Shown here piece after piece: positions 32,692 to 57,113 of a stretch of DNA of 64,000 nucleotides. The notes beneath the pieces are model-generated. The model searched no databases. It worked only from the letters and a program-made list of their open reading frames with translations, and was not told the DNA's origin. Each line of letters starts with the position of its first letter. Within the stretch, counting starts at the first letter, position 1. The position numbers and the translations under genes were made by a program. This DNA is from Candidatus Latescibacterota bacterium (GTDB lineage Bacteria > Latescibacterota > UBA2968 > UBA8231), in contig OZ241362.1 in the NCBI GenBank assembly GCA_965200315.1, positions 5,120,001-5,184,000 of the forward strand, in the 5' to 3' direction.

Positions 32692-32704
32692 GACTCTGAA
32701 CCGA

Positions 32705-33568
32705 TCACCAAGCCACTGCCATCATGTCCCGCGCCCAGTACAGCGGCCCGGCGAAGACGCTTTTTACCTCGGCGATTCCCTCGGTAGTCTCTTCTGCGGG
32801 GTCGAGAGTTATTGACTGGTGATTGATGACCAAGCGCTTGGCCCCGGCCTCGGCGGCCATGCGCCCGGCATTGAGGGTGCCGGTTTCGGAGATGACGCTG
32901 GGGAAGGTTTGGATCTTCTCCTCTCGATGCACGGCTTCCATCACGAATAGGTCTGCATCCCGCGCTAGCTCGACTACGGACTCGATCGGCGCGGTATCGC
33001 CGCTGAAGGCGACGACGCCTTCTTCGGTCTCAAAGCGCAAGCCATAGCATTCGATGTAGGGCTGGGCGTGCTTGACTTCGCGCGCATAGCAGGTCCAGCC
33101 TTCCCCGGCGGCCACTTTTCCCGCGGCGTATTCGGCTGCGTGGACTACTGGTTCCGGCCTAAAATCGCCCACGCCGCCGCGCATTTGGTAGGCGTGGACG
33201 CTCATGGGATGATTGGTGCGGGCGATCACGTCGTACCAGAAGAGGCCGTTGGGACTCCAAATGCCGTCGGTGATGCGCTTGATCGGGGGCGGCCCATAGA
33301 CGTGGAGGTCTGGCTCGGTGCCGATGCACTGGTCGAAGCGCGTCATCAGGAAGCAGAGATAATCGGAGATGTGGTCGGAGTGCAGGTGGGTAAAAAACAG
33401 GTTGTGTACCGAAGTGCAGGGGATGCCCAAGCGGTGCATCTTAAAGGTCGATGCGGGGCCGCAGTCGATCATCAGCCGCTGGTCGCAGATTTCGAGGATG
33501 AAACAGGTGCCCCAGCGGTCGCGCGTGGGGGTGGGCGTACCGGCGCCGACAATGTTTAGCTTTGGCAT
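32705..33568 (-). CDS. MBL-fold metallohydrolase (RNase Z-like)
   Basis: IDCG, THLHSDH, VKH, FSGDT, LVINH. Confidence 0.85.
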   Translation of the reverse strand: MPKLNIVGAGTPTPTRDRWGTCFILEICDQRLMIDCGPASTFKMHRLGIPCTSVHNLFFTHLHSDHISDYLCFLMTRFDQCIGTEPDLHVYGPPPIKRITDGIWSPNGLFWYDVIARTNHPMSVHAYQMRGGVGDFRPEPVVHAAEYAAGKVAAGEGWTCYAREVKHAQPYIECYGLRFETEEGVVAFSGDTAPIESVVELARDADLFVMEAVHREEKIQTFPSVISETGTLNAGRMAAEAGAKRLVINHQSITLDPAEETTEGIAEVKSVFAGPLYWARDMMAVAW

Positions 33569-33665
33569 GGGATCGTCTCCAGATTGTAGGGAAAATAAAT
33601 AGGCATTATTGGTAGGGGGTCAAGCTGGCCGCTAGTATTTTAAGCGACTGCTTCTCGCGGGAACT

Positions 33666-33767
33666 ATGCCCCTCAACACCCACACCCCCCGCCTGCCCCT
33701 GCGTCCCATGACGGATGCCGATTGGGACATCTTATTGCGCTGGAACCAAGACTCCGAGGTGTTGTAG
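33666..33767 (+). repeat. Diverged copy of the 5' end of the GNAT gene at 34466
   Basis: MPLNTHTPRLPLRPMTDADWDILLRWNQDSEVL* vs MSPSLNTHCVHLHTSRLHLRPMTDADWDILLRWNQDADVLY. Confidence 0.9.
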
Positions 33768-34074
33768 CGCGCTCGACCAGCTTCGGTCAGTATTGGTGAT
33801 TAGAGGTTGTCCGATCATCACTACCGGATTGGTGATCTTAGCGATATGGATCGTGCTTAGTTACCTACGTCACTACGCATTTTTTGCAAAGAACGATCCC
33901 GACAGGTTACAATCGGAGGAGTACCGATACGAAACGGCGCGGATGCAGATGATCGCAGCCAAGGAGTTACGCAATCCAGTTCCCTCAGAGGATCTTCCAG
34001 ACCCGAAGGAAAAGCCAGACGCGCCTAGACCGTCTTCCTATTCAACTGATGCAGATGAGGAAAATGTCGCATGA
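33768..34074 (+). pseudogene. Probably 5'-truncated small membrane protein
   Basis: TM segment LVILAIWIVLSY followed by DPDRLQSEEY; no own start after the GNAT remnant; ATGA overlap with the next gene. Confidence 0.5.
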
Positions 34075-34427
34075 AATCCCATCTCTTTACGTTCAGCCAA
34101 GCCTGCACACAGGCGCACACGCACACCGTGCTCAACAACATTGAGGAAGTTAAAACATGGATTGCGCCGTTTCCGTACTCCGCTATCCTCGTCTCCAGAC
34201 TCAATGCCCAGGACCTCAGTGCCATTCTTCGCGAGCGACTGCCCGACGTGTGGTTCATGGTCGCAGAAATGGACCCCCAGACCGTGAATGGCTGGCTGCC
34301 CGGAAATCTCTGGGAGTACGTAAACGACCCGCAGAAGGCGTGGTCTCAGCAATTGATCAGGACTATCGCCGATCCAAAGTATCTTCGTCGTCCCGTCGCC
34401 GATGCCGACAGAATGACGGGGACGTAG
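34071..34427 (+). CDS. Small hypothetical protein, possibly ferredoxin-like (VapD/Cas2-like) fold
   Basis: 118 aa; GAGG RBS; ends NGWLP..LWEYV. Confidence 0.55.
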   Translation: MKSHLFTFSQACTQAHTHTVLNNIEEVKTWIAPFPYSAILVSRLNAQDLSAILRERLPDVWFMVAEMDPQTVNGWLPGNLWEYVNDPQKAWSQQLIRTIADPKYLRRPVADADRMTGT

Positions 34428-34465
34428 ATCTGCCTAGCCCCGATCAGTTTGGGCTTCACAGCACC

Positions 34466-35035
34466 ATGTCGCCCTCCCTCAACACCCACTGCGTCCACCT
34501 GCACACATCCCGCCTGCACCTGCGTCCCATGACCGATGCCGATTGGGACATTTTGCTGCGCTGGAACCAAGATGCCGACGTGTTGTATTACGCCGATGGC
34601 TCAGATGTGACGGCCTATACGCTTGGCCAGATCAAGCGCATGTACGGCGGTATCTCGCAAGCCGCCTGCTGCTTTATCGCTGAGCTCGACGGTCAGCCCA
34701 TCGCCGAGGCCTGGTTGCAGGCTATGAATCTGGCGCGCATTATCGCAGCTCATCCCGGCTGCGACTGCCGCCGTATTGACCTGTCCATTGGCGAGAAGCA
34801 GTACTGGAACAAAGGCTTGGGGAGCGAAATAATCCGCGCATTGGTCGATTTCGGTTTTGCCGAGGAAAAGGCCGATTTTATCTTCGCCTGCGACATTGCC
34901 GATTACAACCCCCGCAGCCGCGCTGCGTTTGCCAAATCGGGCTTCCGCGTCGTGGCCCACAGCGCCCAACCGCCCGGCAGCAAGGCGCGTTCCACCTGCG
35001 ATATGCGCATCGCCCAAACCGAGTGGGCGGTCTAA
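34466..35035 (+). CDS. GNAT (RimJ/RimL-like) N-acetyltransferase
   Basis: T.RL.LRP, IGEK.YWNKGLG, YNPRS..AF.K.GF. Confidence 0.85.
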   Translation: MSPSLNTHCVHLHTSRLHLRPMTDADWDILLRWNQDADVLYYADGSDVTAYTLGQIKRMYGGISQAACCFIAELDGQPIAEAWLQAMNLARIIAAHPGCDCRRIDLSIGEKQYWNKGLGSEIIRALVDFGFAEEKADFIFACDIADYNPRSRAAFAKSGFRVVAHSAQPPGSKARSTCDMRIAQTEWAV

Positions 35036-35051
35036 TTCCAGCGAGGATATC

Positions 35052-35110
35052 GACCCATGCGCCTAGTCATCTTGTCGTACAGCCACCACGGCCGCGGCAT
35101 CGGCCAGACC
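35052..35110 (+). repeat. Copy of the 5' end of the Gfo/Idh/MocA gene (36669-36727)
   Basis: 58/59 identical by eye; retains a GAGGA RBS upstream. Confidence 0.9.
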
Positions 35111-35111
35111 A

Positions 35112-35177
35112 TCCTTGGCGCAATAGCCGTTGGCGGAGGGCGGAATCGGTCAGCAGGTGCTGCATGCCGGCGGCGAT
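35112..35177 (-). repeat. Diverged copy of glycosyltransferase segment 42297-42362
   Basis: 66 bp, 8 differences; IAAGMQHLLTDSALRQRLLRQG vs IAAGMQRLLTDSALRQRLSHQG. Confidence 0.9.
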
Positions 35178-36587
35178 TTATTTTTTAAAAAATGTCGCGA
35201 TGTCGTTTGGGTCCCAAAGGTAGAGGTGCGGGTCGCGGAGATTTTTGAGGGTGTTGGTAAAGCCGGATTTGGAGGTAATAAGATAAAAAGCGTTTGCAGT
35301 CGGGAGGTTTTGGGCGCGGTGTTTGAGGGTTTGCAAAACGTCGGTGCCAACAGGAGTGGATGTCCATTTGCATTCGACAAAGAGAGTTTGCCGGGTTTCG
35401 GAGTTGAGGGCGACGAGGTCTATTTCGCTTTGTCTGTCCCACCAGCGTCCGATTCGGTGAAAGTAGAAGGGGGCGCGGTTGTGAAGGTTGAGCTTGAGCA
35501 AAAGTTCTCGCGTGATATTTTCAAAGGCAAAGCCCATAAATTCCGCTACGCAGGTATTTAGGCGGTTGAGAAAATACGGAAAATTGCCTGATTCGTAGAT
35601 ACTCAATTGACGGTAGATGAATCGCATCCAGAAAGTGATAAAGGGATCGCGGATTTTATAGCGACTTTTTTTGGTTTTCCAGGATTGCTCAGTAATGGGC
35701 ACTTCGCGTTCGATGAGGTCAAACAAGTCAGACAATTCGCGCAGGTATTTGGACAAGCTAGTGGCCGGCAGTCCGGCGGGGCCGGCAATTTCAGAGCGGC
35801 GGGTTTTTCCAGTGGCGATGGCTTCGAGGATTGCCAAATAGGTGTGGGCAGTGCCGCCAAATTCGGAGAGGATGATATCTCGCATTTCATTGCGAAAGGG
35901 GGCAAAGGGGGTGAACAGTGCTTGATGGAGAATTTGGTGGATGGTGCTGCCGCCCAATCCCATGCTTTCTATAATTTCGTAATACCGGGGCATGCCGCCA
36001 AAGATGCCGTAAAGGGTAAGTACGTCTGTGGACGATTGAAAGCCGAGATCTGTAGCAATTTGATAGATGGCTTCGATGGGTAAAGGGCTGAGATCAACTT
36101 CCCGGGTGAGACGACCATAGAGGGGTTCTTTGGCGTCTTGGAAAACTTTTTTCATCAGGCCCACGACAGAACCTATGGCAATGAGATGTATTCTGGATTG
36201 TTTGTGCCATGTGTCCCACACGCCTTGGAGGATGGAATAGATGGCGGGATCGACAGTGAGAAAGTTTTGAAATTCATCGAAGACGACGATCAGGTGTCGG
36301 TGCTGGGTTTCGGCAAAGAGAAAAACGAAAAAATCCTGCCAACTTGTAAATGTGGGCGCGTGGGCAATGTGCGATTTGAGGGTAGCCGAAAATTCGGCGA
36401 GGAGGGCATTTGCAGGGCGTTTTTCAACAAAAAAATAGATGCCGCCATTCTGGATATGTTGGCGCACGAGTTCTGTTTTTCCCACACGCCGTCGCCCAAA
36501 GATCGCGGTGAACTGAGAAAATTGGGCCGATCTTTCGGTTAGGTCGCGAAGAAGTGTCAGTTCTGTTTCTCGGTCGTAGAATCTCAT
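35178..36587 (-). CDS. Archaeal-type AAA ATPase with DUF234/PD-(D/E)xK C-terminal domain
   Basis: FYDRE.EL, GRRRVGKT, FDEFQ, GG.P.Y, FE, G.WW, EIDLV, ECKW; lower GC. Confidence 0.85.
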   Translation of the reverse strand: MRFYDRETELTLLRDLTERSAQFSQFTAIFGRRRVGKTELVRQHIQNGGIYFFVEKRPANALLAEFSATLKSHIAHAPTFTSWQDFFVFLFAETQHRHLIVVFDEFQNFLTVDPAIYSILQGVWDTWHKQSRIHLIAIGSVVGLMKKVFQDAKEPLYGRLTREVDLSPLPIEAIYQIATDLGFQSSTDVLTLYGIFGGMPRYYEIIESMGLGGSTIHQILHQALFTPFAPFRNEMRDIILSEFGGTAHTYLAILEAIATGKTRRSEIAGPAGLPATSLSKYLRELSDLFDLIEREVPITEQSWKTKKSRYKIRDPFITFWMRFIYRQLSIYESGNFPYFLNRLNTCVAEFMGFAFENITRELLLKLNLHNRAPFYFHRIGRWWDRQSEIDLVALNSETRQTLFVECKWTSTPVGTDVLQTLKHRAQNLPTANAFYLITSKSGFTNTLKNLRDPHLYLWDPNDIATFFKK

Positions 36588-36673
36588 TATTATTCTTTTA
36601 ATAATTATTTTATTTAGAATAATAACAGACATGGAGACAAGTGTCAATGCAAGACAAGCCTGCTAAAAGACCC

Positions 36674-37735
36674 ATGCGCCTAGTCATCTTGTCGTACAGC
36701 CACCACGGCCGCAGCATCGGCCAGACCGTTCGCGCCTTGGGGCACGATATAATCGGGGTCATGGACGGGGAAGAAGCCCCGCGCCAACAACTAGCAGAGA
36801 TTTTCCAATGTCCGGGTTTTGCCACGGCGGGCGAGTGCCTTGACGCTGTGCAGCCCGACGCCGCTTTAGTCGCTGGCAAGCACATTGAAATGGCGGCTCA
36901 CGTGCAGGCCTGCGTCGAGCGGCGCATCCCCTACCTGCTCGACAAGCCCTTTGCCGATTGCGCTGCTCGGCTCCGCCCCGCGGCCGCAGCTTCGGCCAAA
37001 CACGGAGTCTTCAGTGCCCTCACGCTGCCCAACCGCGCCAGCCGCATCGTCGCCACGGTGGAGCGTCTGTTAGCTGACGGCACGCTGGGCGATCTGGTCC
37101 AGTATAGCTGCCGCCTCAATAACGGCCCGCCCTCGCGCTACGACCCGACGCCGTCGGCTTGGCACAACGATCCGGCCATTTCCGGCGGCGGTAGCTGGGC
37201 CGTAGAGGCGGCCCACGGCATTGACACCTTCCTGCAATTCGTCGGCGAGCAGACGGTACACGTGGTCGGCGCCATCATGTCCAATGCCACCCACGGCCGT
37301 ATTGTGGAGGATATCGGCTTGGGAATGCTGCGCACGGATGGGGGCGTGACCGGCGTTATCGAAAGCGGCTACGCCTATCCGTCAGGGGTGCGTAGCGGCG
37401 ACCACTTCTTCCGCTTTATCGGCACTCGCGCCATGGTGTTCCAGCAGTACGGCCAAGCAGGCGATCCTCTCATCGAAGTCCACACCACCGAGGGCGTGGA
37501 GTTCAGTGAGGATTTGTCGCACGGCGAGCGCATGACGACCATAGTCGATCGAGCTCTGACCGCTTTGGCAGATGGGCGGTCCTTCACCCCCAATATCGAC
37601 CAAGCCGTGCGCATCCTCGAAGTACAGGACGCGGTGTACGACCACGCCCGCCGAAGCCCGCTGACCAACGGCCCATACCCTATGGGCACCCCGGCTATGG
37701 CATCTAATGATGCGAATATGCAGGGCGGCGAATAG
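36674..37735 (+). CDS. Gfo/Idh/MocA-family oxidoreductase (start may be 36641 or 36647)
   Basis: H..M, LLDKP, SGGG, H.ID, VED motifs. Confidence 0.8.
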   Translation: MRLVILSYSHHGRSIGQTVRALGHDIIGVMDGEEAPRQQLAEIFQCPGFATAGECLDAVQPDAALVAGKHIEMAAHVQACVERRIPYLLDKPFADCAARLRPAAAASAKHGVFSALTLPNRASRIVATVERLLADGTLGDLVQYSCRLNNGPPSRYDPTPSAWHNDPAISGGGSWAVEAAHGIDTFLQFVGEQTVHVVGAIMSNATHGRIVEDIGLGMLRTDGGVTGVIESGYAYPSGVRSGDHFFRFIGTRAMVFQQYGQAGDPLIEVHTTEGVEFSEDLSHGERMTTIVDRALTALADGRSFTPNIDQAVRILEVQDAVYDHARRSPLTNGPYPMGTPAMASNDANMQGGE

Positions 37736-37831
37736 CTACGGTTTATAGCCGCTTATACAACTGAATAGTTCGCTGGGCCGCGCCTTCCCACGTAAAGGCT
37801 GCGGCCCGTTGTATAGCCGTTGGCGGAGCGC
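37736..37831 (-). repeat. Copy of the 3' end of the glycosyltransferase (42219-42326)
   Basis: Starts at the CTA stop directly after the Gfo TAG; about 70 bp identical, then a 13-bp deletion and 19 more bp with 2 differences. Confidence 0.9.
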
Positions 37832-37940
37832 GACGCGATTATGGGAACAGGCGAGAGGAACGCAGATTTACAGGATGTGTTCTGCCGTTAGATATGGCTT
37901 GGGACGGGCGTTGGGGTGTCGAAAGGGCGGCTTAAAAAGA

Positions 37941-38133
37941 TCATTTCAAAAGCCCAAGACGCTCGAGGTCGTTCTCACCCCACCGAACTTGTTGCTCAAT
38001 GATTGACTTGAGAGTACCGATAGCAAAGGTCTGGTTCATATTGTGCAGGTGAATAGTCGTCGTTCTCCCATCTCGGTGGATAAAAAGACGGGGCACGCCT
38101 TTTCTTTTGTATTCGCAAAACCCATCTCTTTTT
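37941..38133 (-). pseudogene. hicA: HicA toxin, 3' part (interrupted by the IS)
   Basis: RDGFCEYKRKGVPRLFIHRDGRTTTIHLH..TFAIGTLKSII..W..NDLERLGLLK*. Confidence 0.85.
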
Positions 38134-38155
38134 CGGAATTTCCTAATTTAAGGTC

Positions 38156-38184
38156 TTGACTTTCCATTTTGCAACCCCTATTTT
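38156..38184 (+). promoter_or_regulatory. Inward sigma70-like promoter for the methylase operon
   Basis: TTGACT-17 bp-TATTTT, overlapping the inner end of the TIR. Confidence 0.5.
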
Positions 38185-38220
38185 ACGGGCTATCCGCTAC
38201 GGCTAAACGAAAGGAAAATA

Positions 38221-39039
38221 ATGAAGTCCGACTGGATGAATGACGTTCATATCGGAAACTGCCTTGATGTTATGCAGGATTTCCCAGACGAAAGCATTGA
38301 TCTTATCGTAACTTCTCCGCCCTATGCCGACGCGAGAAAACACACCTATGGAGGCGTCCACCCCGATCTCTATGTCGAATGGTTTCTTCCGATAGGAGAG
38401 CAGATGCTACGAGTGCTAAAGCCATCGGGTTCCTTTGTGCTGAACATCAAAGAAAGGGCCGCCAATGGAGAAAGACACCTCTACGTCTTAGACCTGATAA
38501 GTGCGCTCAAAAGAGAAGTCGGTTTCAGGTGGGTCGAGGAGTATATCTGGCACAAGACGACATCGGCACCCGGCAAGTGGAAGTATCGGTTTCGAGATGG
38601 ATGGGAAAGACTTTTGCATTTTTCCAAGACCAACGAGTTCAAAATGAACCAAGAAAACGTCATGGTGCCAGCCGGAGAATGGACAAAAGCTCGACTAAAG
38701 AACATGGGTGAAAGAGATTACACACGTAATAATTCTGCGACCAAATCAGGGATTGGTCGCAACATCTCCGCTTGGTCTGGTCGAGAAAAGGTGTATCCTA
38801 GCAACGTCCTACACAAAGCACCCGTCTGCCATAATACCGGTCATTCTGCGGCCTTTCCCGAATGGCTACCAACCTTTTTTATCGAACTATTCACGGATCC
38901 CGGTGATGTTGTCCTAGATCCCTTTCTTGGATCAGGAACAACTTTTAGAGTTGCCCTGAAGCTCAATCGCACCCCTGTCGGCATTGAGCTAGAAGCCGAA
39001 AACGTAAAGGATACTGCATATGCTCCCTTGGGTTTCTGA
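38221..39039 (+). CDS. Beta-class N4-C/N6-A DNA methyltransferase
   Basis: TSPPY precedes DPFLGSGT; HSAAFP; AAGGA RBS. Confidence 0.9.
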   Translation: MKSDWMNDVHIGNCLDVMQDFPDESIDLIVTSPPYADARKHTYGGVHPDLYVEWFLPIGEQMLRVLKPSGSFVLNIKERAANGERHLYVLDLISALKREVGFRWVEEYIWHKTTSAPGKWKYRFRDGWERLLHFSKTNEFKMNQENVMVPAGEWTKARLKNMGERDYTRNNSATKSGIGRNISAWSGREKVYPSNVLHKAPVCHNTGHSAAFPEWLPTFFIELFTDPGDVVLDPFLGSGTTFRVALKLNRTPVGIELEAENVKDTAYAPLGF

Positions 39040-39655
39040 GGCTGACTTTGAGCGAGAACTTGAACGGCTGAAAACAAGCTACAAAGACGCACTCAATAAG
39101 GCGGAGGAGAGAAGAAAAAGGAATGTCGTTGATCCGTTTTCAAGTCTTATGATTGCAGAAACATTCGGAATGACGACAGCCGAAGAATTGAGCTTCTCAC
39201 AAGACACTGAATCTGCCACGCGAGGATCGAGCAATGCAATAGGCCACTTTCACCAAGGGATACTAGGGTCCGTAGCAGGGTGGGAAAACTATAATCGTGG
39301 CTATGATTTGAGGTCTGAAAAACAAAAGATGATTGTTGAGCTAAAGAATAAGCACAACACCTTGAATGATAACGACAAAAAAGGCACTATACGAAAACTG
39401 TCTAGCTCAATTAGCAGAGAACCGACTGACTGGACAGCCGCCCTTGTCTTAATCATTCCCAAAACGCCCATACGATACCAAACAACCATCGCACACAGAG
39501 TTATTGAGATGGAAGGCGCGAGCTTCTATCACTTAGTCACTGGACATCGTAATGCCATTCACCAACTCTTTGAACATCTATCCAATAGATTATCTCCCTC
39601 CGATGAAATCAGACGATATTGCAAGGCTATTTTAGACCATTCATTGCCACCATGA
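39020..39655 (+). CDS. Eco47II-like type II restriction endonuclease
   Basis: DPF, N.IG.FHQ.ILG...GW, GYD, ELKNKHNT, G.SFY.LVTG. Confidence 0.7.
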   Translation: MLPWVSEADFERELERLKTSYKDALNKAEERRKRNVVDPFSSLMIAETFGMTTAEELSFSQDTESATRGSSNAIGHFHQGILGSVAGWENYNRGYDLRSEKQKMIVELKNKHNTLNDNDKKGTIRKLSSSISREPTDWTAALVLIIPKTPIRYQTTIAHRVIEMEGASFYHLVTGHRNAIHQLFEHLSNRLSPSDEIRRYCKAILDHSLPP

Positions 39656-39861
39656 AAAGTAGAGACAGGCGAAATAGGAGCCGCAGACAATGCGGAAACA
39701 TCAGGGAAAACGGAAAGAGATGTGGAAATAGAACATCAAACTTTGAAGATGCCCTATATTGCCCGCGCTGTGATATAGCATTGATGCAAAAAGATCATCC
39801 TTTATTAGACGCCTTTGAATCCATTTTAGACAGCGAATCTTCTCGTTACTCAATCCTCTAA
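39652..39861 (+). CDS. Small basic Cys-rich protein (69 aa)
   Basis: ATGA overlap with the endonuclease stop; C-x9-C...CPRC. Confidence 0.4.
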   Translation: MKSRDRRNRSRRQCGNIRENGKRCGNRTSNFEDALYCPRCDIALMQKDHPLLDAFESILDSESSRYSIL

Positions 39862-40755
39862 CAATAACTCAAGTTGCTGCTCGCCCTTTGGAAGTGCTCG
39901 ATTCAGATTACGCATAAAGATGTTCCAGTTAGACGATGCCTTCATCAAGGCAGCAACGGCGGCCAGATGCTCTTTGAGCTTGGGGTGGCCCAGATCGGGT
40001 GTGAACCACTGGTGGTGCGTGTTGCGGCGACCCTTGCCGCTGGGGAGCGTAGGATTGACACGCCGCAGCTCGTCGAGGACGCCCGGCGCTAGGCGACTGT
40101 ACACAATGTCATTGGTGTAATGGCCTATTACGGACGGCCGCGCAACACCATTGGGGCCGGGCCAGCCCTTGAGGCGAAATATCTGATTGTAGAACTCGTA
40201 GGGAAATGTCTTGGTCCAAGGTTGAAACTCTTTGGCGATGAACTTCTCAAGAATGGTTGCAAGGGCGCGTTCTTCGCGTATGCGCTGGTAGCCCGTCGCC
40301 TCGTCCACAAGGGCAATTACGCCCACTGTGGCAAGGCTACGCATAAGTATCTCGGCCTGAACTGCGACATGAGCTTGATTAGGTAGCAGCATATTAGCAT
40401 CGCGGGCTTTGAGATACACTTCACAAACTTGGGGCAGTAGAATCGCATCATATCCAAGCGCAATTCTTCCTCCTGTTGGGAGTCTAAATCTAACCGGAGT
40501 TAGCGACTTGCTTAAAGTATTGGAAATGAATGGTTTAAGGCGTTCAGAGCGCAAAAAAGCGGGCAAGTCTGCGACTTGCTGCTCTGCTCCGGGGCCTGTA
40601 GGCTTGGGAGAACGCCCTAGTGCCTCTGAAAATCCTGCTTGAGTAAGAACGCGCGTTTCATCTTCCAGCACATAGCAAGGTATTTCAACTTCGCCGATTA
40701 CCAAAGGTCGATCTGGTGCTCCGGCGATTACTTTCAGCGGTTCCTGTTTGCTCAT
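39850..40755 (-). CDS. P63C-domain protein
   Basis: IPCYVLED.TRVL, VG.IALVDEATGYQ, W.KTFP.EFY, HHQW.T...G.P.L. Confidence 0.85.
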   Translation of the reverse strand: MSKQEPLKVIAGAPDRPLVIGEVEIPCYVLEDETRVLTQAGFSEALGRSPKPTGPGAEQQVADLPAFLRSERLKPFISNTLSKSLTPVRFRLPTGGRIALGYDAILLPQVCEVYLKARDANMLLPNQAHVAVQAEILMRSLATVGVIALVDEATGYQRIREERALATILEKFIAKEFQPWTKTFPYEFYNQIFRLKGWPGPNGVARPSVIGHYTNDIVYSRLAPGVLDELRRVNPTLPSGKGRRNTHHQWFTPDLGHPKLKEHLAAVAALMKASSNWNIFMRNLNRALPKGEQQLELLLED

Positions 40756-40757
40756 CT

Positions 40758-41639
40758 TTACACTCCCAATGCTCGATTGATCGTGAGGTTAAAAGCGAAC
40801 TCAGGCGTTGCTCTGCGGAGGTTGTAGCGATAGCAAAACTCATCGACGTAGCGTTGTAGGTGTCGCCTCGATACACTGTGGAACTGGCCGAACATGCCAC
40901 GCTTGAGCAGTGCCCAAAAACTCTCGATGGTGTTGGTGTGAACATCGCCGTCCACGTACCAATCAGAATGGCGGATCACCGAATGAGGGAGCACCTTAGA
41001 CATACCCATGTAGGCTTTGTACTCGTCGGTGTAGAGGCTCGATTCCTCGGTGTTGACGTGCTGGCGGACGAAAGCCCGCATATTGCGACCCTTCATGTTC
41101 TTCTTATCGACGGCTTTGGCCGCGACCGAGCCTTCACGCTCAACGGCTCCAATGACAGGGGCTTTCTTTGTGCCGCGACCGGGCTTATGCTTGCCATCTT
41201 TCCCATCGCCCTTAGTGCCTTTGCGGGGCTTACCTCCGATATAGGTTTCATCCATCTCGACGATACCTTGCAAGATGTTGCGATGCTCGACTTGGTTCAT
41301 CGCTTTACGAATTTGCATGTTCATTCGCCAAGCCGTGTTCTTGTTCACTTTTAGATCGCGGGAAAGTTGGAGCGCAGAGATTCCCTTCTTGGCATTAATC
41401 ATCAGCATAATTGCCAAGAACCACTTTTGTAGGGGTAAATGAGTATGGTGAAAGATGGTGCCGACCGTTACACTAAACGAGGTTTTACAGTTGTAGCAAC
41501 GGTGGCGATGTTCTGCGGGGGCCGTGCGCTCGCTCTGGCAATAGGGGCAAACAACCGTATCGCCCCAACGCACTTTTTCGAGATACTTGATGCAGGATTC
41601 TTGAGTAGGGAACTGCTCGAAAACTTCTAAGATGTTCAT
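40758..41639 (-). CDS. IS1595-family transposase
   Basis: CPYC..CYNC zinc ribbon, GTIF, EMDETY.GG, TDEY..Y, HTNTIESFW, Y.DEF.YRYN.R. Confidence 0.95.
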   Translation of the reverse strand: MNILEVFEQFPTQESCIKYLEKVRWGDTVVCPYCQSERTAPAEHRHRCYNCKTSFSVTVGTIFHHTHLPLQKWFLAIMLMINAKKGISALQLSRDLKVNKNTAWRMNMQIRKAMNQVEHRNILQGIVEMDETYIGGKPRKGTKGDGKDGKHKPGRGTKKAPVIGAVEREGSVAAKAVDKKNMKGRNMRAFVRQHVNTEESSLYTDEYKAYMGMSKVLPHSVIRHSDWYVDGDVHTNTIESFWALLKRGMFGQFHSVSRRHLQRYVDEFCYRYNLRRATPEFAFNLTINRALGV

Positions 41640-41668
41640 GGCATCTTCTCCTATCATTAACTACATAG

Positions 41669-41697
41669 AAGATACCAAAAACAGGCAAAGAAGTCAA
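41669..41697 (-). promoter_or_regulatory. Inward sigma70-like promoter for the transposase
   Basis: TTGACT-17 bp-TATCTT with a TG extension, minus strand. Confidence 0.5.
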
Positions 41698-41728
41698 GAA
41701 CTAAAAGACCTTAAAGTAGGAAATTCCG

Positions 41729-41793
41729 CTTTTTAATGCTTGTATCAATCTGCGTACTGTCAGCGAACGAAGTCTGCTATAATCAATGGCCAT
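41729..41793 (-). pseudogene. hicA: HicA toxin, 5' part
   Basis: MAIDYSRLRSLTVRRLIQALK starts 1 nt after the hicB stop and runs into the TIR. Confidence 0.85.
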
Positions 41794-41794
41794 A

Positions 41795-42064
41795 CTAGAT
41801 GGCTACGGCGACCAAAGGAACATCGCTGACCTGAATCTGCGAAGGTGGGTCCGTAGGTATGTCTTCGCCAATTTCTAGCAGATGTGCAACGAGAAGATCA
41901 ACAGCATTTTCTAAATTCTCTAAAGCCTCTTTCTCAGTATATCCCCAACTCGCAGCCCCTTTATGCTCTAGCTCGGGAATATAGGCTCGCCAGACCGCTT
42001 TCTCATCGGGCTCATCGGGCCACTTGTCTTGCTCTAAAACAGCCTGAAACAAATACGTTTTCAT
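41795..42064 (-). CDS. hicB: HicB-family antitoxin
   Basis: AYIPEL..GAASWG.T..EAL.NL..A.....GEDIP; AGGAGG RBS. Confidence 0.85.
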   Translation of the reverse strand: MKTYLFQAVLEQDKWPDEPDEKAVWRAYIPELEHKGAASWGYTEKEALENLENAVDLLVAHLLEIGEDIPTDPPSQIQVSDVPLVAVAI

Positions 42065-42218
42065 ACATATCCCTCCTTTTTATTCGCGCTTCGGACCCCT
42101 CGACAGGACCCGCCAGCTTCCTCAACTAGTAATAGTTTACAACTCGCGGCAAATAGACCCAAATGTGAAACGGACCGGACGCGATGCCATCATACGACTG
42201 CGGCGCGGCAGCGAAAAA

Positions 42219-43376
42219 CTACGGGTATAGCCGCTTATACAACTGAATAGTTCGCTGGGCCGCGCCTTCCCACGTAAAGGCTGCGGCCCGTTGTCGTCCT
42301 TGGTGCGAGAGCCGTTGGCGAAGCGCAGAATCGGTCAGCAGGCGCTGCATCCCGGCGGCGATGGCGGCGGTGTCGAGCGGATCGACGAGCACCGCATCTT
42401 CTCCGGCGACTTCGACGAGCGACGAACCGTTCGACGTAAGCACCGGACAGCCGCTGGCCATTGCTTCAAGCACGGGCAGCCCGAATCCTTCTATCAGCGA
42501 TGGGAAGGCGAAAAAGAGCGCACGGGCAAGACAGGTGCGGATTTGCTCGTCGCTGAGCTGACCGACCAAGAGCACCCGATCGCTCAGGCCGAGTTGATGC
42601 GCCAGCCGCGCGAGCGCAGCGTTGCCCTCGCCGCGGCCCGCAAACACCAGCGCGAGATCGGGATGGGCCGGGGCGACTTGGGCAAAGGCGCGTACCAGCC
42701 GAGGTAAGTTTTTGTACGGCAAGCTGTTGCCCAAGCCAAAGGCAAAAGGCCGTTCTGCAAGGCTGTCGAGCATATCCTGCTGCACATGGTCTTGAGCGGT
42801 CGCTTTGCCCAAGCCAAACAGGGCCGGTGCCGCGTTGCCCGAATGCCAAGCAGGGGCCACGCCGTGGAGGATGGCGGTTACTTTGTCGGCTGGTACGCCG
42901 TGGTCGAGTGCCGCTTGGCGCGTGCTTGCGGAGACGGCGACGATGTGGTCGGCTGTGGCGATGGCCCGGCGAATGCCGAAGCTGCCTAGGGAGCCCTTGA
43001 CCCAGCGCCGCCAGCGTCGGCCGTCGGCGAGGTGGGGGTGATCAACCCATATCAGGTCGTGTAGGGTGATGACGACGCGCCGAGCGCGTACGCCGATGGG
43101 GAGAAAGTGGAACAGGGAGTGATATACGTCGGCGTCGAGCCCGTTGATGACCCGAGCACCGGCGAGGATGTTGTGCGGCGAGGAAATGTCGTGCGGTGAG
43201 AAAATCTCCCTGAAGTTGGCCTGATCGGCGATGGGACCGTGGCGCGACGGTCGGCGGACGATGATGTACTCGTTTTCGCGGTCCAGCTTGGCGATGTGGC
43301 TGACGAGGTCGGCGGCGTAGCGGCCGAGGCTGGTGGGTACGTCGCGCAGAGAGCGAGCGTCGATGCAGATCCTCAT
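42219..43376 (-). CDS. GT4-family glycosyltransferase
   Basis: MRICIDAR, TLHDL, KNL..L..AF, PSL.EGFGLPVLEAMASG.PV. Confidence 0.9.
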   Translation of the reverse strand: MRICIDARSLRDVPTSLGRYAADLVSHIAKLDRENEYIIVRRPSRHGPIADQANFREIFSPHDISSPHNILAGARVINGLDADVYHSLFHFLPIGVRARRVVITLHDLIWVDHPHLADGRRWRRWVKGSLGSFGIRRAIATADHIVAVSASTRQAALDHGVPADKVTAILHGVAPAWHSGNAAPALFGLGKATAQDHVQQDMLDSLAERPFAFGLGNSLPYKNLPRLVRAFAQVAPAHPDLALVFAGRGEGNAALARLAHQLGLSDRVLLVGQLSDEQIRTCLARALFFAFPSLIEGFGLPVLEAMASGCPVLTSNGSSLVEVAGEDAVLVDPLDTAAIAAGMQRLLTDSALRQRLSHQGRQRAAAFTWEGAAQRTIQLYKRLYP

Positions 43377-56282: not shown

Positions 56283-57113
56283 ATGCCTACTTCCACTATT
56301 TTGTTGGGCGATTGCCGCGAAAAACTCGGCGGGGTCGCGTCCGAATCCGCCGACTTGATCGTCACTTCGCCGCCGTATGCCAATCAGCGCGCTAGCACCT
56401 ATGGTGGGGTAAAGCCCGACGAGTACGTGGCGTGGTTTTTGCCGATTGCCGACGAGTTGCAGCGCGTACTCAAGCCGAGCGGCACTTTTGTTTTGAATAT
56501 CAAGGAATGTGCTGTCAAAGGGGAGCGGCACACCTATGTGCTGGAATTGATACTTGCGCTGCGGCAGCAGGGTTGGCTGTGGACCGAGGAGTTTGTGTGG
56601 CACAAGAAAAACTGCTATCCCGGCAAGTGGCCGAATCGGTTTAGGGATTCTTGGGAGCGGCTGTTGCAGTTCAACAAGCAGCGCCAATTCAAGATGAACC
56701 AAGAAGCCGTGATGGTCCCTGTGGGCGACTGGTATGAACGGAGGATGCACAACCTGAGCGCGACCGATCGCCGGCGCGACGAGTCCAATGTGGGCAGCGG
56801 CTTTGGCAAGAAGGTGGAAAATTGGCTGGGACGCGACAAGGTCTATCCTACCAATGTGCTGCACCGCGCCACCGAATGTGCCAACCGCAGCCATAGTGCG
56901 GCTTTTCCGCGTTGGTTGCCGGAGTGGTTTATAGATTTGTTCACCGACCCCGGCGATGTGGTGTTGGATCCGTTTATTGGCTCGGGGACGACGGCGTTTG
57001 CTGCACTGGATAAGGGGCGGCACGTCATCGGCATTGAGATGCACGAGCCGTATTACGAGGAGTTGCAGCAGAAACTCGACCAAGATCAACCCATTTTACT
57101 GTCGTTTACTTAG
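56283..57113 (+). CDS. Beta-class N4-C/N6-A DNA methyltransferase
   Basis: TSPPY, HSAAFP, DPFIGSGTT; clearly homologous to 38221-39039. Confidence 0.9.
   Translation: MPTSTILLGDCREKLGGVASESADLIVTSPPYANQRASTYGGVKPDEYVAWFLPIADELQRVLKPSGTFVLNIKECAVKGERHTYVLELILALRQQGWLWTEEFVWHKKNCYPGKWPNRFRDSWERLLQFNKQRQFKMNQEAVMVPVGDWYERRMHNLSATDRRRDESNVGSGFGKKVENWLGRDKVYPTNVLHRATECANRSHSAAFPRWLPEWFIDLFTDPGDVVLDPFIGSGTTAFAALDKGRHVIGIEMHEPYYEELQQKLDQDQPILLSFT

Follow-up and report, generated by a model that had tools for sequence, protein, structure and literature searches.

The DNA analyzed here, referred to as the window, is a stretch of 64,000 nucleotides (positions 5,120,001-5,184,000) of the single-contig, 5.36-Mb genome of Candidatus Latescibacterota bacterium (assembly GCA_965200315.1; G000, the discovery genome), and this study concerns three blocks of low-GC DNA (cargos 1 to 3) that split a conserved run of genes, together with the short copies of gene ends (remnants, or scars) left beside them. 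Related species are designated by other G-numbers and are metagenome-assembled genomes (MAGs) of Latescibacterota; public sequencing runs are designated by X-numbers, and those holding the window are sponge metagenomes. Coordinates are those of the window unless preceded by C1 (the genome contig) or by an L-number (a separate extracted locus). The backbone (32.7-43.4 kb) comprises genes for a metallo-beta-lactamase (MBL)-fold protein (minus strand), a GNAT acetyltransferase (plus), a Gfo/Idh/MocA oxidoreductase (Gfo, plus) and a GT4 glycosyltransferase (minus), followed by a DUF3047 gene and an LPG-synthase-like gene. It is part of a sugar-modification gene cluster, from which a DRL oxidoreductase gene, between GNAT and Gfo, has been lost in G000. 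The G+C content of cargo 1 is 0.50-0.55, that of the flanks 0.60-0.65.

The left backbone gene codes for the MBL-fold protein (32705-33568, minus strand; Pfam Lactamase_B_2, 3e-12) and is 90-95% identical in 18 relatives. It is followed by a GNAT 5' remnant (33666-33766, plus), consisting of the first 34 or so codons and then a stop at the junction. The repeat pair proper (33681-33766 and 34502-34587) spans 86 nt with 88% identity; by eye, homology runs from the ATG (33666 and 34466) for about 100 nt, if a 15-nt indel is allowed. Cargo 1 (33767-34465, plus) is of low GC and holds two small open reading frames (ORFs), 33793-34074, with a hydrophobic stretch recognized by eye, and 34071-34427; neither matched a family in Pfam or PADLOC. 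The intact GNAT gene (34466-35035, plus; Acetyltransf_3, 3e-14; 87-91% identical in relatives) comes next. In the GNAT remnant of a conspecific strain (run X2) there are a 15-nt insertion and six substitutions within 27 nt (33671-33697), far denser than in the flanks, which suggests gene conversion or slippage within the scar.

The second unit starts with a Gfo 5' remnant (35052-35114, plus; -5 to +58), in which 59 nt (35052-35110, -5 to +54) are 98% identical to 36669-36727. Fused directly to it is a 66-nt internal piece of GT4 (35112-35177, minus; bases 78-143 from the stop codon; 88% identical to 42297-42362), a fourth remnant that the first-pass annotation of this DNA had overlooked. The joint between the two (Gfo58/GT4-78) shows (A/G)TCC microhomology and is the sole left joint that can be read for microhomology; the 4 nt that follow the Gfo repeat, ATCC, are those found in Gfo of G002, G003 and G010. 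Cargo 2 (35178-36668, minus) consists of a gene for an ATPase_2 and DUF234 (nuclease-like) protein (35178-36587; DUF234, 8e-29; ATPase_2, 1e-15) and an AT-rich upstream region; the gene matches the PADLOC candidate defence family PDC-S27 (2e-54). The intact Gfo gene (36669-37735, plus, with its ATG at 36674; GFO_IDH_MocA_C3, 3.5e-16) closes the unit.

The third unit starts with a GT4 3' remnant (37736-37832, minus), made up of 76 nt, a 13-nt deletion and a further 20 nt. Its core of 69 nt (37744-37812) is 100% identical to 42226-42294, and is extended by BLAST to 89 nt with 94.4% identity (37724-37812 and 42207-42294); the last 20 nt of the remnant are 95% identical to 35123-35142. The left part of cargo 3 (37833-38133, minus) holds the 3' part of hicA with downstream DNA, and shares 90-94% identity with G002 and G010, two species with an unbroken hicA (HicA_toxin, 4e-11, for the G010 copy). 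The right part (41729-42218, minus) holds the start of hicA, hicB (41795-42064; HicB_lk_antitox, 2e-4) and the upstream region, its final 12 nt being a copy of the Gfo end. Between the two parts, inside hicA, lies an insertion sequence with passenger genes (38134-41728). The intact GT4 gene (42219-43376, minus; Glycos_transf_1, 4e-35; 86-90% identical in relatives) is the right backbone gene; Gfo and GT4 abut tail to tail.

A copy of the right-hand sequence is thus found to the left of each of the three cargos, as the first-pass annotation had stated, and independently of gene strand: the remnants are 5' ends for the plus-strand genes GNAT and Gfo and a 3' end for the minus-strand gene GT4. 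In a 12-kb region, four direct repeats of at least 45 nt were found, whereas none of 100 first-order Markov simulations contained any, the longest simulated repeat being 23 nt. Homology had also been said to begin at or near a start or stop codon. This is correct for GNAT (at the ATG) and for Gfo (at -5), and not for GT4, where the repeat begins before the stop codon, inside the Gfo end (by 12 nt in G000 and 17 nt in G002). The claim that remnants differ mainly at synonymous sites applies to a modest extent: synonymous and non-synonymous codons number six and four in GNAT and five and three in the internal GT4 piece, the single difference in the Gfo remnant is non-synonymous, and the 69-nt GT4 core has no differences.

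What had been noted as an insertion sequence beside hicBA is indeed one, and is more precisely a 3.6-kb IS1595-family element (38134-41728) with 24-nt terminal inverted repeats, a DDE_Tnp_IS1595 transposase with a zinc ribbon (Pfam, 1e-36 and 1e-9) and three passengers, a methylase, an Eco47II-like endonuclease and a P63C protein. This interval alone has every feature of an IS1595-family insertion sequence with passengers. The restriction-modification pair of the window (38221-39655) belongs to it, and such genes are absent from cargos 1 to 3 proper. In the window, the element interrupts the toxin gene hicA and leaves hicB whole. Three 100% identical copies exist in the genome, the other two at C1:4804267-4807874 and C1:3353601-3357202. 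The element-free joint (38127 to 41729, with a 6-nt overlap) was found in three of four runs (X2, X4 and X18). When the public contigs were inspected for a cargo-less or circular form of cargo 3, the joint without the element was the only alternative form listed, contigs of this kind being unable to show absence. About 18 kb downstream, at 56358-56732, another stretch shares 67% identity with the element's methylase gene, and similar stretches occur in most relatives.

The locus was compared across 19 loci from 18 congeneric species. The backbone is conserved (86-95% identity) and all three intergenic slots are variable; the locus is a long-lived hypervariable hotspot. The empty sites that the first-pass annotation had proposed to look for in relatives were present, for example in G005, G008, G013 and G019. 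GNAT and Gfo are adjacent in four species, separated by a DRL-type oxidoreductase gene in seven and by cargo 2 in six; in about 10 species little or nothing separates Gfo from GT4, and six have hicBA, whole or in pieces, in this slot. The DRL-type gene codes for a protein with a SAF domain, runs into the Gfo start (L013:3254-4594), has counterparts in G006, G010, G011, G012, G022 and G023 and is missing from the window genome; it looks like part of the ancestral operon. In G007 (L018:2450-3880) a long imperfect tandem array with a period of about 72 nt (70-85% identity) lies between cargo 1 and GNAT, and Gfo is absent from the locus.

The two sides of a cargo behaved differently in this comparison. 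The junction between cargo 2 and Gfo (at -5) was base-identical in all six species with a full cargo 2, and in G014 only the last 62 nt of cargo 2 remain, next to Gfo; on the left side of cargo 2 there were at least four different junctions. Similarly, the junction between cargo 1 and the GNAT ATG was identical in four of four species; cargo 1 abuts the GNAT ATG in G014, G020 and G021 as it does in G000. Gfo position 21 is T in six of the seven species with the cargo 2 junction and in none of the 11 without it. This linkage indicates that the gene start travels with the cargo; since the species are related, the association is a lead and not a statistic. The first-pass annotation had taken the remnants to be leftovers of gene capture, homologous exchange having taken place at the gene and irregular joining at the far side, and the constancy of the gene-side junctions next to differing left junctions bears this out.

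Cargo 2 is 94-96% identical in five congeners whose backbone is 87-93% identical. It is 88-89% identical at the DNA level in another family of the class, and 79% identical in protein sequence in a Binatia MAG. No direct repeat flanked the cargo 2 ATPase gene in the other family within 1.5 kb on either side (L007-L010). A donor search by sliding identity against five relatives bearing cargo 2 (cargo about 96%, Gfo about 92%) revealed no recent tract. Further remnants were found in relatives, all of them left of a cargo: 90 nt of GNAT in G013, 17-21 nt of Gfo ahead of cargo 2 in G010, 39-45 nt of Gfo ahead of a 575-nt block and the DRL gene in G001 and G023, and 127 nt of GT4 in G002, with the same cargo 3 junction as in G000. 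A spacer in G010 that was considered as a GT4 fragment was rejected, its score being matched by 130 of 500 shuffles.

The internal GT4 piece is 93.9% identical to GT4 of G021 and G023, and GT4 of eight other species resembles it more closely than the copy in G000 itself does; the GNAT remnant and the intact GNAT gene of G013 have a two-site Leu-codon haplotype in common. Derivation of remnants from a different allele, which had been argued from synonymous sites, is better supported by these two comparisons. Three consecutive insertions had also been proposed. There are three remnant-cargo units, which do not stand for three events in G000: the GT4 remnant/hicBA junction is common to G002 and G000, so that the event is older than both species or was exchanged between them. 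As the two G002 copies are only 88% alike, the perfect 69-nt core in G000 is best read as the result of later gene conversion.

Scars of this type were searched for throughout G000 with a k-mer script of our own (direct repeats of 45-400 nt, at least 80% identity, 150-12,000 nt apart) and a crude gene caller based on codon usage. The 404 candidate pairs were reduced to 176 isolated pairs, then to 46 in which one copy lies in a gene and the other does not, and finally to 24 by a strict gene-end rule. The GNAT and internal GT4 pairs of the window were added by hand, giving 26 pairs; the other 22 gene/non-gene pairs failed the rule and were left out. The repeats are 50-316 nt long and many pairs are diverged (80-96% identity), five of the 26 being 100% identical. 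In 21 of the 26 pairs the 3' end of the gene is duplicated, and in nearly all pairs the repeat ends 0-18 nt past the stop codon. Third codon positions account for 59 of the 111 differences, and 51 codons differ synonymously and 50 non-synonymously. The argument from a synonymous bias is thereby weakened, as about this ratio is expected of a plain duplication in which only the intact copy is under selection.

Cargos were annotated at 20 of the 22 loci outside the window (those at C1:4280729 and C1:5080869 were left out), and 46 ORFs from 19 loci were compared with Pfam; the remaining cargo, at L036, is 375 nt long and has no ORF of at least 50 amino acids. The cargos are mostly 0.4-2.3 kb in size. 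Toxin-antitoxin or defence-type matches were YefM-YoeB, BrnT, MazF-like, PIN, HicB-like, DUF4160/DUF2442 and Fic proteins, AAA_21 with DUF3226, an AAA-ATPase with PDDEXK_9, Schlafen/AlbA_2, a C5 methylase, a type III restriction-modification system and three dynamin-like GTPases; a few cargos are metabolic. None of the 46 ORFs matched a recombinase or transposase family in Pfam. The whole genome codes for four tyrosine recombinases (PF00589), the nearest 178 kb away, and for no serine recombinase (PF00239), in line with the earlier remark that no integrase is visible. No shared junction motif or att core was seen by eye in 20 oriented junction sets, a formal motif or attC-model search not being part of this inspection.

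Two of the loci outside the window were followed into other species. At the MazF-type locus, the same order of gene, cargo and remnant is present in G001 and G042, and the module occurs at a different locus in at least five species of the genus. Just beyond the MazF-locus remnant (L048:1216-1351; C1:3886115-3886250) lies a member of a repeat family of about 100-130 nt with at least 11 other copies (75-86% identity), which may be a small non-autonomous element. The BrnT locus is a second hotspot, with empty sites in several species, a right-side remnant in G000 and a left-side remnant in G023. About 35 kb before the window (C1:5080869-5087213), two scars separated by 4 kb point towards each other, one being a right-side remnant of a plus-strand gene and the other a left-side remnant of a minus-strand gene, the second with an AAA-ATPase and PD-(D/E)XK nuclease as cargo; this may be another small hotspot. 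Elsewhere, C1:129,000-147,200 is filled with very dense repeats of 45-76 nt (92-100% identity) and no called genes, and resembles a large array of CRISPR-type or other interspersed repeats.

We infer from these data that the scars probably arose by recombinase-free capture, in which one homologous exchange took place in the neighbouring gene and one illegitimate joint was formed, either by homology-facilitated illegitimate recombination (HFIR) or by circularization followed by a single crossover. The repeats, the gene-side junctions that are constant while the far-side junctions vary, the empty sites, the movement of cargos between genomes and loci, and the lack of any recombinase or core site in the searches fit the import of cargo that was already joined to a gene end. 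The scars look like gene capture and not like a new directional insertion machine. Small modules (the two-gene block, the PDC-S27-type ATPase-nuclease and hicBA) would enter from related genomes without a recombinase of their own, each arriving physically joined to the end of a neighbouring backbone gene. Integration would then require one RecA-type homologous exchange inside the gene end and one illegitimate joint beyond the cargo, made either on the chromosome (HFIR in the strict sense) or beforehand, by circularization of a trimmed linear fragment that is then inserted by a single crossover. The resident gene end would be displaced to the far side of the cargo and kept as a scar of 50-300 nt while the gene stays whole.

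Scars formed in this way would later decay (as the 13-nt and 15-nt deletions suggest), be overwritten by gene conversion (the 69-nt perfect core) or be deleted, giving the clean gene-cargo-gene layout of most species. The fused Gfo/GT4 remnant could have come from a circle that held cargo 2 together with 63 nt of Gfo and 66 nt of GT4, with no need for an intermediate lacking the gene; HFIR into a variant with a deletion could equally have produced it. Under selection for intact genes, repeated rounds may pare the cargo back to start and stop codons. Selection also accounts for the prevalence of 3' ends, because a gene that receives the event at this end keeps its promoter.

Several observations weigh against capture, or against a choice between its two routes. 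No donor genome was found, and there is no relative closer than about 96% in the cargo, so that no junction can be compared with parental sequences. The remnant Gfo has T21, G45 and ATC60 and the intact Gfo has T21, A45 and GTT60; these three informative sites fit neither pure HFIR nor a simple single crossover without gene conversion. The ComEC and DprA genes are present in G000 and also in non-competent control genomes, and are accordingly no demonstration of DNA uptake; Ku and RecC were not found in the G000 genome, which is 95% complete. The third-position excess is also expected of an in-situ duplication, and the five identical pairs fit a fresh duplication as well as they fit conspecific import or gene conversion. 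Finally, there are about seven junction types across species at this locus and the scars all lie on the left, which capture as described does not explain.

The other origins that were considered account for smaller parts of these data. An artefact of assembly, with a strain-chimeric consensus, is conceivable in that the genome is a MAG and conspecific strains differ in the GNAT remnant and in the presence of the insertion sequence. Public contigs from other samples and from a second study bridge most junctions at even depth, nevertheless: 32700-35008 is bridged by a contig of X4, 36599-39451 by one of X20, and the interval from the Gfo remnant through the GT4 piece and cargo 2 to the Gfo start by one contig each of X2, X4 and X18 (35066 to 36698 or 36703). 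The remaining contigs end inside repeats, as expected of short-word graph assemblies, and the same remnant-cargo-gene layouts recur in assemblies of other species; the probability of an artefact is very low. An insertion that leaves a long target duplication, by a staggered break or by template switching, would make both copies recipient-derived, initially identical and divergent only later. The identical pairs and the codon spectrum, which is that expected of one selected and one neutral copy, agree with this origin, and such a class, of unknown mechanism, has been described for restriction-modification genes (Furuta, Abe and Kobayashi, 2010; PMC2853133). It leaves unexplained the one junction that is base-identical in six species while the other side varies, the cargo-linked marker in the first bases of Gfo, and the greater similarity of remnants to alleles of other species than to their intact counterparts in G000. 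Nor would random staggered duplications almost always start 0-18 nt from the end of a gene, and we consider this origin unlikely, though the best placed of these alternatives. Decayed site-specific integrative elements of the e14 or phage 21-in-icd type, with the integrase lost or acting in trans, would place repeats around the cargo in the manner of attL and attR. Where an integrase targets the end of a gene, the end that is displaced differs mostly at silent sites, as with e14 in icd. The recombinase search at the 20 loci and in the genome as a whole speaks against such elements, as do the small size of most cargos, the range of repeat lengths (50-316 nt) with no shared core seen by eye, and the occurrence of the same cargo with different left junctions between species. 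This origin is improbable.

An unrecognized cassette-acquisition system that is polar along the chromosome or with replication had been raised as a further possibility. At this locus, probes from left gene ends were found to the left of their gene 22 times (about 10 of them strong matches), and a right-end probe was found to the right of its gene once, weakly; three of the left-side junction types come from species other than G000. Genome-wide, in contrast, the remnant lies to the left in 13 pairs and to the right in 13, which is the random placement that the first-pass annotation had itself named beforehand as counting against a directional mechanism. What the remnants share is the 3' end of a gene and not a chromosomal direction, and the mechanism is left unsupported. 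On the same replichore, at a distance of 72 kb, there is a scar on the right side, and the BrnT hotspot has one scar of each polarity. A local GC-skew test gave p values of 0.43, 0.70 and 0.015 depending on the window size used, with the four pairs of this locus counted separately. Without the discovery genome three of three events are left-sided, and with only three independent junction types the local left polarity is not statistically secure. Neither a conserved site nor a candidate enzyme was found, and a directional system is very improbable. In G000, dnaA is at 2.96 Mb and the terminus at about 0.4 Mb by cumulative GC skew and the switch in gene strand, the origin region being ambiguous between 2.6 and 4.6 Mb. 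A replichore polarity with the remnant on the origin side was considered and is not established: in two well-assigned regions seven loci agreed with it and four disagreed, and the skew test depended on window size.

Capture at a gene end may be of wider importance. It is possible, if doubtful, that gene-end displacement, which needs no recombinase, is the principal way into core-gene hotspots of these symbionts for toxin-antitoxin and defence modules, with at least 26 datable scars in a 5.4-Mb genome, a codon-trimming ratchet and a local left bias that is real (caused, for example, by unequal end processing of incoming DNA). The scars are in any case a natural record of single entry events, in which the side with homology and the side without it can be told apart and the cargo is seen to travel welded to a gene end. 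With 26 such records in one closed genome and dozens more in the genus, route, rate and directional bias are testable by comparative genomics. For annotation, the scars explain short pseudo-gene fragments beside low-GC genes.

The class itself is known already, in the form of long target duplications and of displacement arrays, and the present scars differ in cargo type, in having ordinary genes as anchors and in displacement of the 5' end at two of the three genes. A narrow literature search returned no published description of gene-end scars around toxin-antitoxin cargo, which is no proof of absence. Core defence hotspots without marks of mobile elements have been described, for which transfer by homologous recombination in the flanks was suggested and the manner in which they are built was stated to be an open question (Johnson et al., 2023; PMC10250203). 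Those hotspots and the present locus alike have fixed core genes with a changing set of defence genes between them, and the scars bear on how defence and toxin-antitoxin genes reach such sites. Junction scars are not reported in the portion of that study available, whereas those described here record events in which one flank lacked homology.

Restriction-modification inserts of less than 20 kb, with low GC, no mobility genes and an unknown mechanism, are flanked by direct repeats of variable length and more than 30 bp, of which a genome without the insert has a single copy; some of these repeats overlap gene 3' ends (Furuta, Abe and Kobayashi, 2010; PMC2853133). The inserts of this study resemble them in being small (below 20 kb), of low GC and, in the cargos proper, without a mobility gene, and in having long direct repeats that are single-copy in genomes with an empty site. 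They differ in that the cargo is mostly toxin-antitoxin or other defence genes, cargos 1 to 3 lacking the R and M genes that define that class, in that many pairs are diverged (80-96% identity), and in that one junction is conserved across species, which argues for import together with the gene end rather than for target duplication.

For displacement arrays at Rhs, contact-dependent inhibition (CDI) and type VI secretion system (T6SS) effector-immunity loci, HFIR has been given as the explanation (Kirchberger et al., 2017; PMC5361080). They share with the present locus one-sided homology, an old gene end displaced outward, polar stacks of orphan ends and the lack of an integrase. The anchors here are, in contrast, ordinary enzymes (GNAT, Gfo and GT4) and not a polymorphic toxin with a variable tip and an immunity gene, two of the three are anchored at 5' ends, and three adjacent genes carry one scar each instead of a single stack. 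For linear DNA with one-sided homology, the usual course in E. coli was trimming, recircularization and insertion by a RecA-dependent single crossover, with duplications of 109-950 bp in 56 of 60 clones and true HFIR in 4 of 60 (Amarir-Bouhram et al., 2011; PMC3240628). One homologous exchange and one illegitimate joint are involved there, as is proposed here, and the single-crossover products have the layout of the present scars, with a duplicate of the homologous segment at each flank of the foreign DNA. Events of that type were obtained in the laboratory, in E. coli or in competent species and with engineered substrates, whereas those described here are natural, old and partly shared between species, and have shorter repeats.

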